From Malacoraja senta (taxonomy: Eukaryota): DNA of 64,000 bases. Numbering within the stretch: the stretch's first letter is position 1; each line of letters opens with the position of its first letter. The notes under the pieces are model-generated. The model saw nothing but the letters and a program-made list of their open reading frames with translations, searched no databases and was not told the origin of the DNA. The position numbers and the translations under genes are program-made. Of this stretch, positions 4,383 to 61,419 are shown piece after piece. The DNA lies in assembly GCA_038087875.1 (NCBI GenBank), contig CM075990.1:15006001-15070000 (forward strand), read 5' to 3'.

Positions 4383-4635
4383 GACCCGGGTTCGATCCTG
4401 ACTACAGGTGCTGTCTGTGCGGAAGTTGTATGTTCTCCCCGTGACCTGCGTGGGTTTTCTCTGGGTGCTCTGGTTTTCTCCCACATTCCAAGGATGTAAA
4501 GGTTTGTAGGATAATTGGTTTCGGTAAAATCCCTGGTGTGTAGGGTAGTGCAAACGTACAGGGTGATTGCTGGCCGACGTGGACTTGGTGAGCCGAAGGG
4601 CCCGTTTCCACGCTGTGTCCCGAAAGTGTCTAAAA
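4383..4635 (+). mobile_element. HE1-like V-SINE, 5' truncated
   Basis: B-box GGGTTCGATCC, V-domain-like TGTTCTCCCCGTG, and GAAGGGCCCGTTTCC tail. Confidence 0.8.
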
Positions 4636-34750: not shown

Positions 34751-35811
34751 CAAGTCAAGAATCAAGTTTCCTTTATTGTCATTCAGACCTTTCGGTCTGA
34801 ACGAAATGGTGATGCCTGCAGTCATACACAGAACCAATAATAACAAAACATACAATAAACACAAATTAAACATCCACCACAGTGAGTTCACCAAGCACAT
34901 CCTCACTGTGATGGAGGCAAAGTCTTAGTCTCCGTCTCTTCCCTCCTTGTTCTCCCTCTGCGCTGAAGCGATCGATCCAGGCCGAAGATGCCGCCCTCCA
35001 GTCCAGCGGACCTCCATGGAGATGTCGCCGCCGCCGAAAGCCGGAACGCCGTCTCCGCTCCGAGACGGCCCGCCACAGCATCAGCCCCAGGTCCCGCAGT
35101 CTCCGCTCCGGACCCCACTGCCCCAGCTCCAGACCCCGCAGTCCCCGCTCCGGACCCCGCTGCCCCAGCTCCAGGTCCCGCAGTCCCCGCTCCGGACCCC
35201 GCTGCCCCAGCTCCAGACCCCGTAGTCTCCGCTCCGGACCCCGCTGCCCCAGCTCCAGGTCCCGTAGTCTCCGCTCCGGACCCCGCTGCCCCAGCTCCAG
35301 ACCCCGTAGTCTCCGCTCCGGACCCCGCTGCCCCAGCTCCAGGTCCCGCAGTCCCCGCTCCGGACCCCGCTGCCCCAGCTCCAGGTCCCGCAGTCTCCGC
35401 TCCTGACCCCGCTGCATCAGCTCCAGGTCCCGCAGTCTCCGCTCCGGACCCCGCTGCATCAGCTCCAGGCTGCCGCCGAAAGCCAGAACGCCGCACCAGC
35501 AAGTCGGGCCACCGCTGCCTCAGCCCCGAAGACGGCCAGCCTCCCGTTGGTAAGTCCTGGCTGGCTCTGCCTCCGTAGCCTTGGAGTCGGTCGCAGGATG
35601 GAGTCGGCCAGCCCCGCCATAAGGCCTCACCGCAGACGGAGGCAAGGAAGGGGGGTACGACACGAAAAAGTCGCATTCCCCGAAGGAGGAGACAGAGAAC
35701 ATGTTTCTCCCCCCCTAACACAACCCAACAAACTAAAACTTAACAAAACAAGACAAAAAAAATAACAGAAAAAAGTAAAAACAGACGGACTGCAGGCGAG
35801 CCGCAGCCGAT
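34751..35811 (-). mobile_element. Nested non-autonomous non-LTR element with a GC-rich minisatellite
   Basis: CAAG-repeat tail plus TTTATTGTCAT like the Rex1-type copies. AATAT is duplicated at the flanks, and the host transposon resumes after it. Confidence 0.65.
35082..35469. repeat. 42-bp minisatellite, about 9 units (two diverged 21-bp halves)
   Basis: Unit AGCTCCAGGTCCCGCAGTCTCCGCTCCGGACCCCGCTGCCCC. ORFs across it show a 14-aa period. Confidence 0.95.
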
Positions 35812-42500: not shown

Positions 42501-45393
42501 GATACTCTTAGTCGGAGGTACAAACTTAAAATCGTATTGTTTGAAAATAATGCAGGAGAGAGATGTATTTGCAGGCCATGACTTATCATTTTTATTGAAG
42601 TACATATTGTGTCTTGATTCAGTCAAAAACTGCAGTATTATTAAATATTTGCAGAATACTCGTTTGTTGGTGAGATAAAATGTAGAGCTTAATTAAAATA
42701 CCCCGGTTGCTGTGGAGTTGCTGTACAAGTAACACTGTTTAAAAATCACATTCTTTGCTCTGCGAGATGATGACCAGTTAAGTTGCCCCCATACCTTTTG
42801 CTTTGGAACCTGCAATCCCTTTTAATCAGTTGAAAGTCGTCCACACACAAGGACACATAAAATTTATTGCTGGCCAGAGATGGATGGCAAAAACAGTATG
42901 CATAAATAAAATAAGAGATGAACAATGATTGTGGTGTTGAAGACCTGGCTGAATAAGTATGTCAGGTACTGATTGGAAGAATGATAAATGGACTCGCCTA
43001 ACAAAGGATTGACTGCTTGAAAAGACAGGGCTTTTTAATGGATGGAAGGAGAGGAGGCCTCATTTAAAAAGGAAGGGCTGTTTTCAGCAGAGATATGACA
43101 AAAGGAAGCAGACAAGCATTGATTTATCTTCGAGAATGGCAGTTGAAAAATTCAACAATAATCATGACAAATGAGAAGAGATGCGGCAGGGAAAAAAATG
43201 CCAATACTTGGAGCTTGAAAAGAAATGCCAAGGTCACAAAGAGAGGTCCCGAACTGCTGCTTTAGACACTCTAATGGAACTATTGGAAAAGAAGGGGACA
43301 GGTTAAAATAGATGATTTGGGAAAAAGGGTTGAAGGTGATGCTATTTTCGTTTTTTTCCCCCGGCCCAAGGGATAAATAAAATCTTGGTCAGACGTATTA
43401 CTGAATGCTAAGGACAAATTGACCATTAAAAGAAAATCTATTAAACGGCAACCTCCCCTCCCCCTCCCTCCCACCTCGCGCTGCCACCCCCCTCCCCTCT
43501 CCCCCGCTATCACCCCACATTTGAAATGGGGCAGAAATGATTTTAGGTAATTGCCATGATGATGTTTTATAATTTAGAGGCTTTTCACCAGCACATTGTG
43601 TCTGAAGAAGAATCGGGGAAGAAACGGATTTAAAAAATATATATAGTGGGAAATGATTAAATTACGGATTCTTATGCTTTGGCAAAGAAGATGAAGCATA
43701 AAATCTCCAATTAAGATGCTTTTGCCGATCTTACAGTTTGCATGAAACAACAAACACTGGAATGGCTAGGTACAGTAGATCAATCTCTTCTATTTCAGAT
43801 AAACTGTGATCTGTAATGGCTTTTCACATCTCCACTTACACCTGGGGCTGCATTCAGGCATTAAGGGAGCAGAGCCTCTTCAGATGAAGCATTTTCTAAT
43901 CAGCTTTATCACTCATATCTGAATTTATCTTATTTGAGGAAAATGCCAATATATTAGCAGGCTTGTATGATACACAAGGTGACCCTACCAACTTAATGAC
44001 ATAATACATTATCCTTAATGAAGTCAATATCTTGTCTTTTAGCTGTCTGTCTATTGGGGCGATTAATTGCAGTGTCATTAAAGTTAGCTCTCTTTTCATT
44101 TGAGCTTGACAAGTCGCATAAAACTAATGTTCTTAGTTATCAGCCAGTGGAATAGGATGTGGGCTGGAAGAAATTGTAGGAACTGCAAGGGGGACTGGCA
44201 CAGCTGACTGAAGAGGTTTCTGCGCAGTGACAGATTATAATGAGTCTTGCATTGTTTGTGTTTTGTGTTGCAGGCTCTCTCTCGTATCCCCTTGCATTCC
44301 CCCTACATTTGAAACTGTGAGATGGGAAGGTTGTAATTTACAGTGTGTTATCTTTGTCTATAGCTCCAAGATGATATGAAGTAAATCAAGGTACGAGTAA
44401 TGAAAGACTGAAAATTTATTCCTTGAAGCACAGTTTTAAGTGTAGTATCTGTTATAGTGGCACTGCCTGAAGAGCCTGAAATGAGACTGGATGAAGGGAA
44501 ATAAAGAAGCATGGGAGTTCATGTTAATGCTGTTTGTCTGTGGTTAGTAATTGGGTTCCTCTGATGAGTTACGTGAAGACAAAGTGTGCATCCTAGCAAG
44601 TATTGTAAATCTTACATTGTTGGAACAAGGAGCAATCCTTACAGATATTGATCCGTGTCTGCTCAGAGGCAAGAAAAGCAGTCTGTTTCTCAGTTGGTGT
44701 CGAATCAGTGTCACAAATTACCCGTGTGAAGACAGAACCCTGCACAAAATCCTTCCATTTTAATTCTTAACTTGCACTAATAATTAAAATTTTAATGGTG
44801 AATCATACATTAGACACATTGCGCCAAAAATAAATATATTGATAGGAGCCCTAGGTGTGCTGTTAAAATGCAATCCTAAATTGTCTTTTTATTCCAGACA
44901 TTTTATTTATATGATCTGTGGTGATGAGCACAGGGACTATTATGATAGCATTTGTTCTAGTGTTAACGTTCTGTAAAAATAGCCTGAAATCAATTGATAA
45001 AAAATGGCAAAAAGCAACATTCAATTTTTGTCTTATTTGTGCCATTATTGGGTTGGTAATTTGTATTGTTGTACTTAATGGCAAATCCAACTGGTTCTTT
45101 TAGTAATGTACTTTGTTTTAAAGCATAATTAGGATATTGAAACTTAAACCGATAACTGAATTTATAACTACTGTATATTAATGCAATGGGAAGATAAAGG
45201 GATTAAAATTATAATAAAGAACATTAATATGGACATTACTGATGTGGGATTAGTGCCTCATGTGGAGTATTTGTTGTCACATACTGTTGATTTTATCCTT
45301 GTTTGAAACCTGGAAACAGAAAAATAGGTGCAGGTGTAGGCCATTCGGCCCTTCGGCCATTCAATATAATCATGGCTAATCATCCAAATTGCG

Positions 45394-45447
45394 GGGGTGG
45401 GAGATTGCAACCTTCACGTGGTCCGCCCTGTTTCGACGAATGCAATC
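45394..45447 (+). ncRNA. Minimal HDV-like ribozyme (54 nt)
   Basis: GGGGTGG-GA-GATTGCA-ACC-TTCACGT-GGT-CCGCCCT-G-TTTCGA-CGAA-TGCAATC. 7-bp P1 with G1.U wobble, 7-bp P2, 3-bp P3. Candidate catalytic C at 45437. Confidence 0.85.
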
Positions 45448-45524
45448 AACCTGGCGTGCACAATCAAATAGAACAAGTTGTCTTACAACTTTAGGCTGTG
45501 CACGCCATACGCAAGAAGAAGAAG
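45394..45524 (+). mobile_element. Short retroposon family A (minimal HDV-like head, 3' stem-loop, GAA tail)
   Basis: ATCCAAA duplicated at 45382-45388 and 45525-45531. GGCGTGCACA/TGTGCACGCC stem. Second copy at 61282. Confidence 0.9.
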
Positions 45525-46659
45525 ATCCAAAATCAGTACCCCGTTCCTGCTTTTCCCCCATATCCCTTGATTCCTTTATCCCTAAGAGCTAAATCTAATT
45601 CTCTTGAAAACATCCAGTGAATTGGCCTCCACTGCCTTCTGTGGCAGAGAATTCCGCAGCTTTGATCGCTACTAGAATAGGTTGGATACTAAATATCAGG
45701 TCCTAGCACTTACAGAATCAGTTGCAAATGAGGAAGTGTTCAGTGACCAACATAAGGATGGTTTTGCATGGCTGTGATCCACCCCCCCCCCCCCCCCCAG
45801 TGAAATTATCTGCAAATATTCGTCGTCCCAATTCACACTGGTAAGTTGAGTTAAGTACTTGGACGATGCTTGTGGGGAACAAAAAGTTCATAAGTGATAG
45901 GAGCAGAATTTGGCCATTCAGCCCATCAAATGTCAGAATAGGTTTTGATTTGAAATTTATACATTAACATTTTGATGTATGATTTTTGCAATCATTAAAA
46001 TGTTAAAGAAGTGAACACTTCAAATTTAAAAGCCAAATGTTAGCGTCAAGCACTCCAAATAGGATACAGTAATACGTGGCCAGCTATATAATATCAAACT
46101 GGATCCAATAATGTCTCTTTGACCCAACAGAGTGCACAATTTTTGGTGATTTTTTATTTCCTAACTCCAGATGAATGTCCAGAAAGTTTTTTATTTGTGA
46201 GTACACCGCACCATTTCTTCTTGCGTAATCATGTAGAGATAATGGACGTCAGGGCCCTTTCTTCGTGCCCTTGAGAAACTGGTGGTTTATCACTGCAGTC
46301 CTTTGGTTGAGGTTGTTCATTAGTTCCAGGATTTGAATTGAATACTGTTCAAGGTGTTGAGATATATTTCCAAATCATGATGATGGGTGACTTGGAGTAG
46401 GGTCTGATGCCCTTGGGATGGGCATCTTGCGGTGGCTATCAAAATATCCTTGATAAGCACTTGATGTCCTTTTTGTTGAGAGTACAAAAATGTGGGCACA
46501 ATGCCTTGGTACTGACTGCTGTGAACAGTGTGGTGGATGGGGTGGCAGCTTAGAGGATTGCTTGGGTCTGGATGATGTGACTGCTTGGATGTTACCACGT
46601 GCATCTTCATTTCCTGAGAAGTTGACTTGGCAGTTGAACAATGTGCACTCTGCAGGTGG

Positions 46660-48559: not shown

Positions 48560-48872
48560 TACGTACTTACTGCCTATTATGCTTCCTGGCATGTAGGGCA
48601 GCAACAAGGGTCCTCCACTCCTATTCCCAGTAGTGTTGATTCCTTCAGTTGCTGTTTCCGTAACATATGTGTTTTACGAGACAGGGTTGTTAGCCCTGTG
48701 CTCAACCCCCAACCTGGAGGACCAGTGGATCGCTCTTCGTCTCGCCTCTACCCTTCGACCTGTCCAGCATGGGAGACCCTAACAGGAGACAAATCTCCTG
48801 CTGGCATAGCTCTAGAGGTCACTGAGACACACAAGCTCCCCGACCACGACAAGGTTGCAATCCAACGGGGAG
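48560..48872 (-). mobile_element. Non-autonomous RTE-derived element (family D) with an HDV-like 5' end
   Basis: 10-bp TSD AGGTTAGATA (48550-48559 and 48873-48882). RTE-type 5' UTR motifs CCTTGTCGTGGT and GGGCTAACAACCC. TAAG-type tail. Confidence 0.8.
48727..48872 (-). ncRNA. HDV-like ribozyme with a long P4
   Basis: CTCCCCG-TT-GGATTGC-A-ACC-TTGTCGT-GGT-CGGGGAG-C-[~95 nt]-CGAAGA-GCGATCC. Confidence 0.6.
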
Positions 48873-59662: not shown

Positions 59663-59889
59663 GGGGTCAAGGAAAGAGCGTTCACATCGCGACCCTGCTT
59701 CCATGAATCTTTCCACCACCACGCGCAAGACAGACACCATTGTATGCAGATGCCGAGACACATGTTCAGCTCTGGCTGAACAACTTCTAATCTTGTGTGT
59801 GGACTCGACAAGAAGAAGACTACACTAATCCCATATAATTGAAAGATACATCATCACTGTATCCTAGTCCACGCACACTCATTCAATGT
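59663..59889 (+). mobile_element. Short retroposon family B plus 71 bp of transduced 3' flank
   Basis: 9-bp TSD TATAAAGTT (59654-59662 and 59890-59898). Element 59663-59818 ends in GAAGAAG. The span 59819-59889 matches the reverse complement of about 7445-7515. Confidence 0.85.
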
Positions 59890-60500: not shown

Positions 60501-61281
60501 CAAATGAAGAAGTACTAAAATATCTTGGAGCCCAAATGTTCAAAAGGATCGATATTGACTGGATCTTATAAATATTAATTGGAGCAGAGAATCTAAATTC
60601 AGAACAAACTAATTGAAATATGGAACTAATAAAAAGAAACAGGATAGATATCTGAGTGACATTTTATTTGAGGAATGATCAATACATGAAGTAGAATTGT
60701 GAAAACAAAGACCTTGGCAATATTATTTGGCATCTGTTATTCTGATTATTTTTAAAAACACTATGATATATCAAATATTCTTCATATCTGAAACTATCCT
60801 GTGATTCTGTGTGGAAATAGACACAAAATGCTGGAGAAACTCAGCGGAACAGGCAGCATCTCCGGACAAGAGGAATGGGTGATGTTTCGGGTCGAGACCC
60901 TTCTTCAGACTGAGCGTCAGGAGAGAGGGAGATGCATAGATATAAGGTAGTGTAAGTGATCAAAAGAGATGAAGATCAAGGAAAATGTAGAATAGATCAT
61001 TATTAGCCATGAGCGGGTGACCTTATGTGTTACCAATTTTATGAACTGGAAATGTTTCGTACTTGCAGATTTGGTATCTTTGTGACTGCCAGACAGATCA
61101 TTGCACAAAACCAAATCATGAGGAGCTTGTAAATTCTGGGCAAGTCAGGCAGTGTCTGTGGAGAGAGGATAACTAAAGTATTGAGCTAATGTTTACCTTG
61201 GGACAGTCCTTTATTCTGTAGAAGGATTCGGTTTAAAAATGGATCTAAAAAATGTAGCAATGTATTTAACAGCGATATAAT

Positions 61282-61419
61282 CTTCTTCTTGCGTATGGCG
61301 TGCACAGCCTAAAGTTGTAGGACAACTTGTTCTATTTGATCTTATTTGATTGTGCACGCCGGGTTGATTGCATTCGTTGAAACAGGGTGGACCACGTGAA
61401 GGTTGCAATCTCCCATCCC
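61282..61419 (-). mobile_element. Short retroposon family A, second copy
   Basis: 11-bp TSD AGCGATATAAT (61271-61281 and 61420-61430). The minus strand begins GGGATGG-GA-GATTGCA-ACC-TTCACGT-GGT-CCACCCT. Confidence 0.9.

Follow-up and report, generated by a model that had tools for sequence, protein, structure and literature searches.

A dispersed short element of Malacoraja senta, apparently an internally deleted Vingi-like LINE, has a predicted P4-less HDV-like ribozyme at its 5' end and complementary termini

The repeat at position 45394 of the 64-kb window, the whole stretch of Malacoraja senta DNA that was analysed, belongs to a short dispersed family, designated family A, which by sequence comparison is an internally deleted, non-autonomous copy of a Vingi-like LINE that retains its first 79 and last 40-45 nucleotides, because the parent, family V9, has both the element's 5' fold and its 3' end. 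In the complete account, which we regard as probable, this deleted Vingi-like LINE carries a likely self-cleaving 54-nt head, and pairing is predicted between its two ends, which would be recognised together. The copy number, the presence of the parent at both ends, the insertion boundary at G1, the covarying fold and the 5'-3' complementarity are established.

The head, at 45394-45447 on the forward strand, was predicted to adopt an HDV-like double-pseudoknot fold of 54 nt that lacks the P4 helix, with cleavage predicted 5' of G45394 and C45437 as the predicted catalytic base. The features expected of an HDV-like ribozyme were all present: the nested double pseudoknot, a 7-bp P1 that begins at G1 (45394-45400/45423-45429, with a G.U at pair 1 and a U.G at pair 5), P2 (45403-45409/45441-45447), a 3-bp P3 (45410-45412/45420-45422), a 7-nt L3 and a P1.1 consisting of a single pair made via G45430. 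The P4 position was occupied instead by a 5-nt loop with at most one closing pair, so that 7 nt separate P1 from the predicted catalytic C, and the absence of the helix places the family A head with the minimal, P4-less HDV-like form. The C is the first residue of J4/2 (45437-45440) and is followed by N-A-A. P1, P2, P3, L3, the single-pair P1.1 and J4/2 were found where the earlier note had put them, with the pairing that it described.

A structure descriptor detected two sites in the window, the 45394 copy and a second family A copy at 61419, and gave 102 matches in 1.89 Mb of fetched loci, most of which had been chosen for such elements, compared with 0 in the reversed sequence. There was no Rfam match at the gathering score (44 bits, against 14.4 for the best match), the Rfam models representing single lineages with P4. 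The best sub-threshold match, to the HDV-F-prausnitzii model, covered exactly 45394-45447 (14.4 bits, E=2). Nested folding of the isolated 54 nt was unremarkable (z +0.9), as expected because the structure is a pseudoknot.

The remainder of the element, on the same strand, consists of the rest of the parent's first 79 nt (45394-45472 in all), a linker remnant that is absent from the parent (45473-45477), the parent's final codons, stop codon and 3' UTR (45478-45512) and an (AAG)4 tail (45513-45524). An ATG that overlaps J4/2 and P2 (45440-45442) opens, in the parent, a frame into the endonuclease domain. Apart from the 10 nt of the common form that it lacks at the linker, the 45394 copy departs from the column majority at a single position. 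It was inserted into an older, abundant host repeat (45318-45659) and is flanked by a 7-bp target-site duplication (45382-45388 and 45525-45531), the family median being 12 bp. The second family A copy, on the reverse strand at 61281-61419, has the common 139-bp form and a P1 mismatch at position 4.

Five nucleotides (45389-45393) do lie between the left 7-bp duplication and G1, as had been pointed out earlier. In reverse complement they match 45510-45514 exactly, a segment at the 3' end of the same element, with which they pair in the predicted fold. They are an oddity of the 45394 copy, since at least five extra bases were seen in only 4 of the 112 copies with a detected duplication. The 12 bases to the left of G1 and the 12 to the right of the tail are identical at 9 positions, so the extra bases may have taken the place of the last bases of an ordinary 12-bp duplication, and we infer that they arose by a template switch during insertion.

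Family A is dispersed in the 1.94-Gb genome as copies of about 130-140 bp. Exact 29-mers from the 3' end and the core matched 2,551 and 2,368 times, respectively, genome-wide. The exact core was present in 10 of 30 copies taken in order of position, and 1.0 Mb of sequence that had not been selected for family A contained 4 copies; the two approaches, exact-core fraction and density, agree, pointing to approximately 7,000-10,000 copies. The head was retained in 28 of the 30 ordered copies, while the other two were 5'-truncated (by eye). A duplication was found in 24 of the 25 that were full length and ended at G1 in 23 (14 exactly and 9 overlapping one G), whereas a control with mismatched flanks gave any duplication in 3 of 140 cases. 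All helices and core bases were intact in 30 of 57 copies, and 55 of the 57 had C at the first position of J4/2. The non-CpG substitution rate was 1.7% in the ribozyme and 3.4% elsewhere, but the sample was sequence-anchored and the comparison region polymorphic, and these values were not used as evidence. At the predicted catalytic CpG there were 212 C-to-T and 412 G-to-A variants, while a control CpG in a loop was more skewed (181 and 664), and the counts gave no sign of protection specific to the predicted catalytic C. Changes from G to A on the sense strand outnumbered those from C to T at both CpGs in element positions 41-45, also where the context is palindromic, an excess that could come from sub-lineages or from deamination of the cDNA strand. 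Family A sequence was present in sequencing runs of five organisms; the four runs compared with the window consist of contigs and speak to presence only, and in one run 11 contigs part from the window sequence just ahead of 45394. A metagenome scan for the family A core gave 0 matches.

With both termini from an autonomous LINE, a deleted ORF, flanking duplications and a simple-repeat tail, family A has the characteristics of a bipartite non-autonomous LINE (SIDE). A SINE headed by tRNA, 7SL or 5S sequence was ruled out, as the head consists of the 79 nt with which the LINE itself begins and gave no Rfam match. A theta ribozyme, a phage element often located after a tRNA, was likewise ruled out for this dispersed repeat with duplications at G1.

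The path to the parent led from a search with the 3' motif to a LINE fragment, from there to the proteins of its relatives, which are single-ORF endonuclease-reverse transcriptase (RT) proteins of about 1,000 residues without RNase H, and from these by genome search to families V1-V8. The V1-V8 families were rejected as the parent because their ends differ from those of family A, and two RTE families, reached via DUF6451, were rejected because they have other ends; the RTE families share the letters of the P2/P3 core with family A and one of them also ends in (AAG)n. An exclusion pattern search for the family A 5' sequence continuing into an endonuclease-RT ORF identified V9. Nt 1-79 of the element are matched by V9 at about 90-93%, its last 40-45 nt are matched as well, and between the two matching parts V9 has a frame for endonuclease and reverse transcriptase. 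The V9 5' end has the same P4-less 54-nt fold, and its first in-frame ATG, which overlaps J4/2 and P2, reads into the endonuclease in 3 of the 7 copies translated. The V9 5' region had 27 candidates, and every copy examined was broken, many being internally deleted or inverted. No convincing source of the approximately 18-nt family A linker was found inside V9. In numerous V9 copies (L475, L479, L481, L486-L489 and L408) the 5' segment is inverted relative to a 3' fragment, an arrangement similar to twin priming accompanied by a large deletion. Others (L377, L383, L404, L053 and L165) are independent V9 deletion derivatives with different junctions; among the V9 deletion junctions, only that of family A grew to thousands of copies.

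V9 aligned along P0074, and a Pfam search of three relatives, V9 not being among them, returned only endonuclease and RT. The parent has the architecture given for Vingi in PMC13708176, a single ORF with APE endonuclease and RT and no RNase H. In an RT tree of 23 rows, from which V7 was dropped as too short and which contained no named Vingi or Ingi protein, V9 grouped with the V families, apart from the RTE and CR1-like rows, with support of 93/92, below the starred level. The V5 head resembles, by eye, the 5' end of Vingi-2_Gav in the PMC5786205 supplement. V9 and V1-V8 are accordingly termed Vingi-like, a name that rests on the architecture (PMC13708176) and on the single by-eye match of V5 to Vingi-2_Gav.

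The 10-bp stem described in the earlier note was present at 45453-45462/45497-45506 and can be extended to 11 bp (45452-45462/45497-45507). The hairpin that it encloses, at 45475-45491, has 7 bp, and the segment 45448-45525 folds at -23.4 kcal/mol (z -3.4). The proposal that this structure is a 3' stem-loop, likely the RT recognition signal, needs revision in the light of the parent, in which the 5' arm is within the first 70 nt and the 3' arm is located after the stop codon, in the 3' UTR, approximately 3 kb away. Since the arms come from opposite ends of the parent, the outer stem is a 5'-3' pairing. It spans the deletion junction, and the inner hairpin across that junction is particular to the short element, using linker bases that the parent lacks. 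In two copies (L069 and L074) an inverted copy of the element's own 3' end lies beside the 5' arm, and one of them repeats a private substitution (by eye).

The pairing was tested in seven families by comparing the 30 nt after P2 with the 30 nt before the tail. The windows were set after four families had been inspected by eye, those for V1 were taken from its short derivative, and V3 and family D were out-of-sample; a first run with two decayed V9 copies had given 4-5 bp, after which L443 was used and the 5' window, at first 25 nt, was lengthened to 30 nt. Five of the seven families gave perfect stems of 7-9 bp (V9, V1 and V3, 8 bp; V5, 9 bp; V6, 7 bp), beginning 5-10 nt after P2 and differing in their letters, and the assignment test gave p=0.001 by length and p=0.0004 by energy. 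V2 showed a weak pairing (6 bp, p~0.09), and in V4 there was none (5 bp, p~0.5). In family D, a separate short element, the 5'-3' duplex had an energy of -20.9 kcal/mol, reached in 0 of 1000 shuffles, with a longest perfect stem of 5 bp (p=0.36).

These data bear on the possibility of an active ribozyme combined with an incidental outer stem, the RT needing the last 40 nt alone and the complementarity being the product of a palindrome and chance. Six of the eight V9 pairs do form a palindrome, 5 of 42 non-cognate pairs of ends reached 7-8 bp, V2 and V4 were not significant, and the choice of windows followed the inspection by eye. We nevertheless consider an incidental stem unlikely, though it is the most serious of the alternatives, in view of 1) the corresponding offsets at which the cognate stems occur in five families that differ in their letters, 2) the V3 5' end, previously unseen, which had the two features predicted for it beforehand, namely the fold and a 5'-3' pairing of 13 bp with a bulge, 3) the agreement of family D and 4) the stem of the short element, which at 10-11 bp exceeds the 8 bp of its parent. 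A functional pairing of the two ends remains our preferred interpretation.

The predicted folds indicate that an HDV-like head is a feature of the Vingi-like clade in the Malacoraja senta genome. Six Vingi-like families besides V9 have the same fold in different letters, V1 to V6 all starting with it, although the single V6 copy is imperfect; the 5' ends of V7 and V8 were looked for in the genome and not found. Across A, the V1-derived family C, V2, V4 and V5, with the strands located by manually set anchors, 81 of 85 helix pairs hold, compared with a mean of 9.95 of 17 when strands are swapped, and 13 of the 17 pairs have changed on both sides. C occupies the first J4/2 position in all of the tabulated families, P4 ranges from none to long, and the duplications in the V families also abut or nearly abut G1 (by eye).

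Other short elements with such heads were observed. Family C (L180, L184) is a bipartite V1 derivative of about 200 bp with a 67-nt HDV-like head. Family D, represented in the window at 59663-59818 on the forward strand, is headed by an HDV-like fold that lacks P4, differs in its helix letters and apparently has a 6-bp P1; the catalytic position is T in its window copy and C in 11 of 13 genome matches, and its parent LINE was not found. Family B, at approximately 48560-48870 on the reverse strand, is a bipartite RTE element whose HDV-like head has a long P4, and its near full-length parent is L151 (5' at 1738, 3' at 4548).

A 5' end at G1 is equally expected from an internal promoter that starts at +1, as described for Pr77 (PMC3383444), and the boundary data cannot tell a start site from a cut. 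The pseudoknot could then be a protein-binding, end-protecting or translation element that cleaves poorly or not at all, a notion to which the position of the parent's first in-frame ATG inside the fold lends some weight, as does Pr77 itself, which is both promoter and ribozyme (PMC3383444). This explanation is improbable in our judgement, since the C at the first J4/2 position, the pairing of G1 and the L3 pattern have been kept across families whose helices were rewritten, and the same C recurs in 11 of 13 family D matches; a purely structural role would have no need for it.

The earlier note had described P4 as reduced, but the P4 of V9 is already minimal, and because V9 has the identical 54-nt fold, the predicted structures imply that the loss is ancestral to the short element and came with the autonomous parent, rather than through shrinkage of the derivative. 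There was no support for a U(UUCG)A mini-P4, as the family D loop differs and the G in question is the most frequently changed base. That only the P4-bearing Vingi ribozymes are active, the V9/family A form being crippled and spread via rare transcripts starting near G1, is very unlikely, for while P4 is replaced by only a 5-nt loop and the few candidate parent copies that were examined are all broken, the autonomous parent has the same form, the family D loop is equally short among other helix letters, thousands of copies begin at G1 and P4-less phage ribozymes are active (PMC10879173). The suggestion that the 45394 copy is the best candidate for an active ribozyme in the window stands in the limited sense that its compact head is the best preserved there, given the P1 mismatch in the second family A copy and the T at the catalytic position of the family D head at 59663; the ranking applies to compact heads, the RTE-type head at approximately 48870 being unscored. 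Genome-wide the copy is unremarkable, with 30 of 57 copies intact.

In the proposed mechanism, family A RNA would be made by host read-through or from an internal promoter, and the P4-less fold would cut it just before G45394 by means of C45437. The two ends would pair and be recognised together by the parent reverse transcriptase, the parent protein presumably binding where ribozyme, stem and tail meet. Target-primed reverse transcription would then proceed as far as the RNA's 5' end, leaving a duplication of about 12 bp that abuts G1. The 45394 copy is probably no longer mobilised because the parent appears to have decayed in the assembly, although its RNA could still be able to cleave. A clade-wide extension, which we offer tentatively as having somewhat less than an even chance, is that Vingi elements start with an active HDV-like ribozyme, reduced in some lineages to the P4-less 54-nt form, and that their RNA is looped over about 3 kb by pairing of a segment immediately downstream of the ribozyme with the 3' UTR, with two-ended recognition by the RT.

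The class of element to which family A belongs, a ribozyme joined to LINE ends, is already known from trypanosomes and flies. HDV-like ribozymes are used, in general terms, by some metazoan LINEs and SINEs (PMC6765202). The NARTc/L1Tc and RIME/ingi pairs of the trypanosome Ingi clade (PMC3383444, PMC4035085) also include short elements made of the ~77-nt start and ~30-nt end of a LINE, and the L1Tc/NARTc ribozymes cleave at +1, just before the first nucleotide, as is predicted for family A (PMC3383444). Family A differs from NARTc/L1Tc in its animal host, its length (130-140 against 263 nt), its (AAG)n tail, the absence of P4 and a parent without RNase H, and the sections seen of PMC3383444 and PMC4035085 contain no mention of 5'-3' pairing. 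In the R2 SIDEs (Eickbush and Eickbush 2012, PMC3414825) a ribozyme and a 3' end were likewise fused by internal deletion and SIDE cleavage was demonstrated; R2 is rDNA-specific with a large ribozyme, whereas family A is dispersed and APE-type with duplications of about 12 bp. The minimal HDV-like or theta ribozymes (Kienbeck 2024, PMC10879173; Riccitelli 2014 cited there) also lack P4, are about 55 nt long and have the catalytic C at the first J4/2 position, and P4-less theta ribozymes of about 56 nt are active (PMC10879173). Tailed phages account for nearly 99% of that set, many members of which adjoin tRNAs, and the eukaryotic genomes searched there (human, mouse and protists; PMC10879173) yielded no reported example, in contrast to the thousands of copies that head an animal retroposon in family A. 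A single Watson-Crick P1.1 pair with a U.U allows fast cleavage (PMC13635239).

Bipartite non-autonomous derivatives are known from only four clades, RTE, Ingi, Vingi and R2, the reason being left open (Kojima 2018, PMC5786205); the bipartite Vingi elements are those of Kojima 2011 as cited in PMC5786205. The excerpts available from the papers searched, a set without Repbase, Dfam, patents and some key primary work, described no Vingi ribozyme, no eukaryotic P4-less HDV-like ribozyme and no 5'-3' pairing in Vingi, and in the co-mentions of HDV ribozyme and "vingi" that were checked, either Tvingi was meant or the terms were unlinked. The combination of ribozyme and 5'-3' pairing offers a direct, testable answer to the question of why Vingi gives rise to bipartite elements. 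Vingi-1 of the green anole has been used as an RNA-templated gene-insertion tool with donor RNAs that carry both UTRs (PMC13708176). Two-ended recognition, if true, would explain both the bipartite parasites of Vingi and the presence of both UTRs on the engineered templates, and the self-cleaving head and end-to-end stem would become design rules for Vingi-1 donor RNAs. Thousands of copies of an HDV-like ribozyme without P4 would, moreover, be present in an animal genome, and sense-oriented intronic copies could cut host pre-mRNAs.

Several minor observations concern the related families and the window. In two V5 loci with open frames of about 1,010 codons (L338 and L339) the first half of the ribozyme is repeated in tandem at the 5' end, with a 24-nt unit, and a V3 locus (L529) has a similar short duplication. 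A single V1 insertion, with identical flanks each time, was seen on dozens of unplaced contigs (L205-L235, many small contigs), a pattern that suggests large-scale amplification of a segmental or satellite-like kind. In the window, the segment 46215-46800 on the reverse strand, for which neither the fetched loci nor the proteins gave a match, closes with a Vingi-like terminal motif plus AAG repeats, and a GC-rich tandem array with a 42-bp unit (9.2 copies) is located at 35082-35469 within overlapping open frames.
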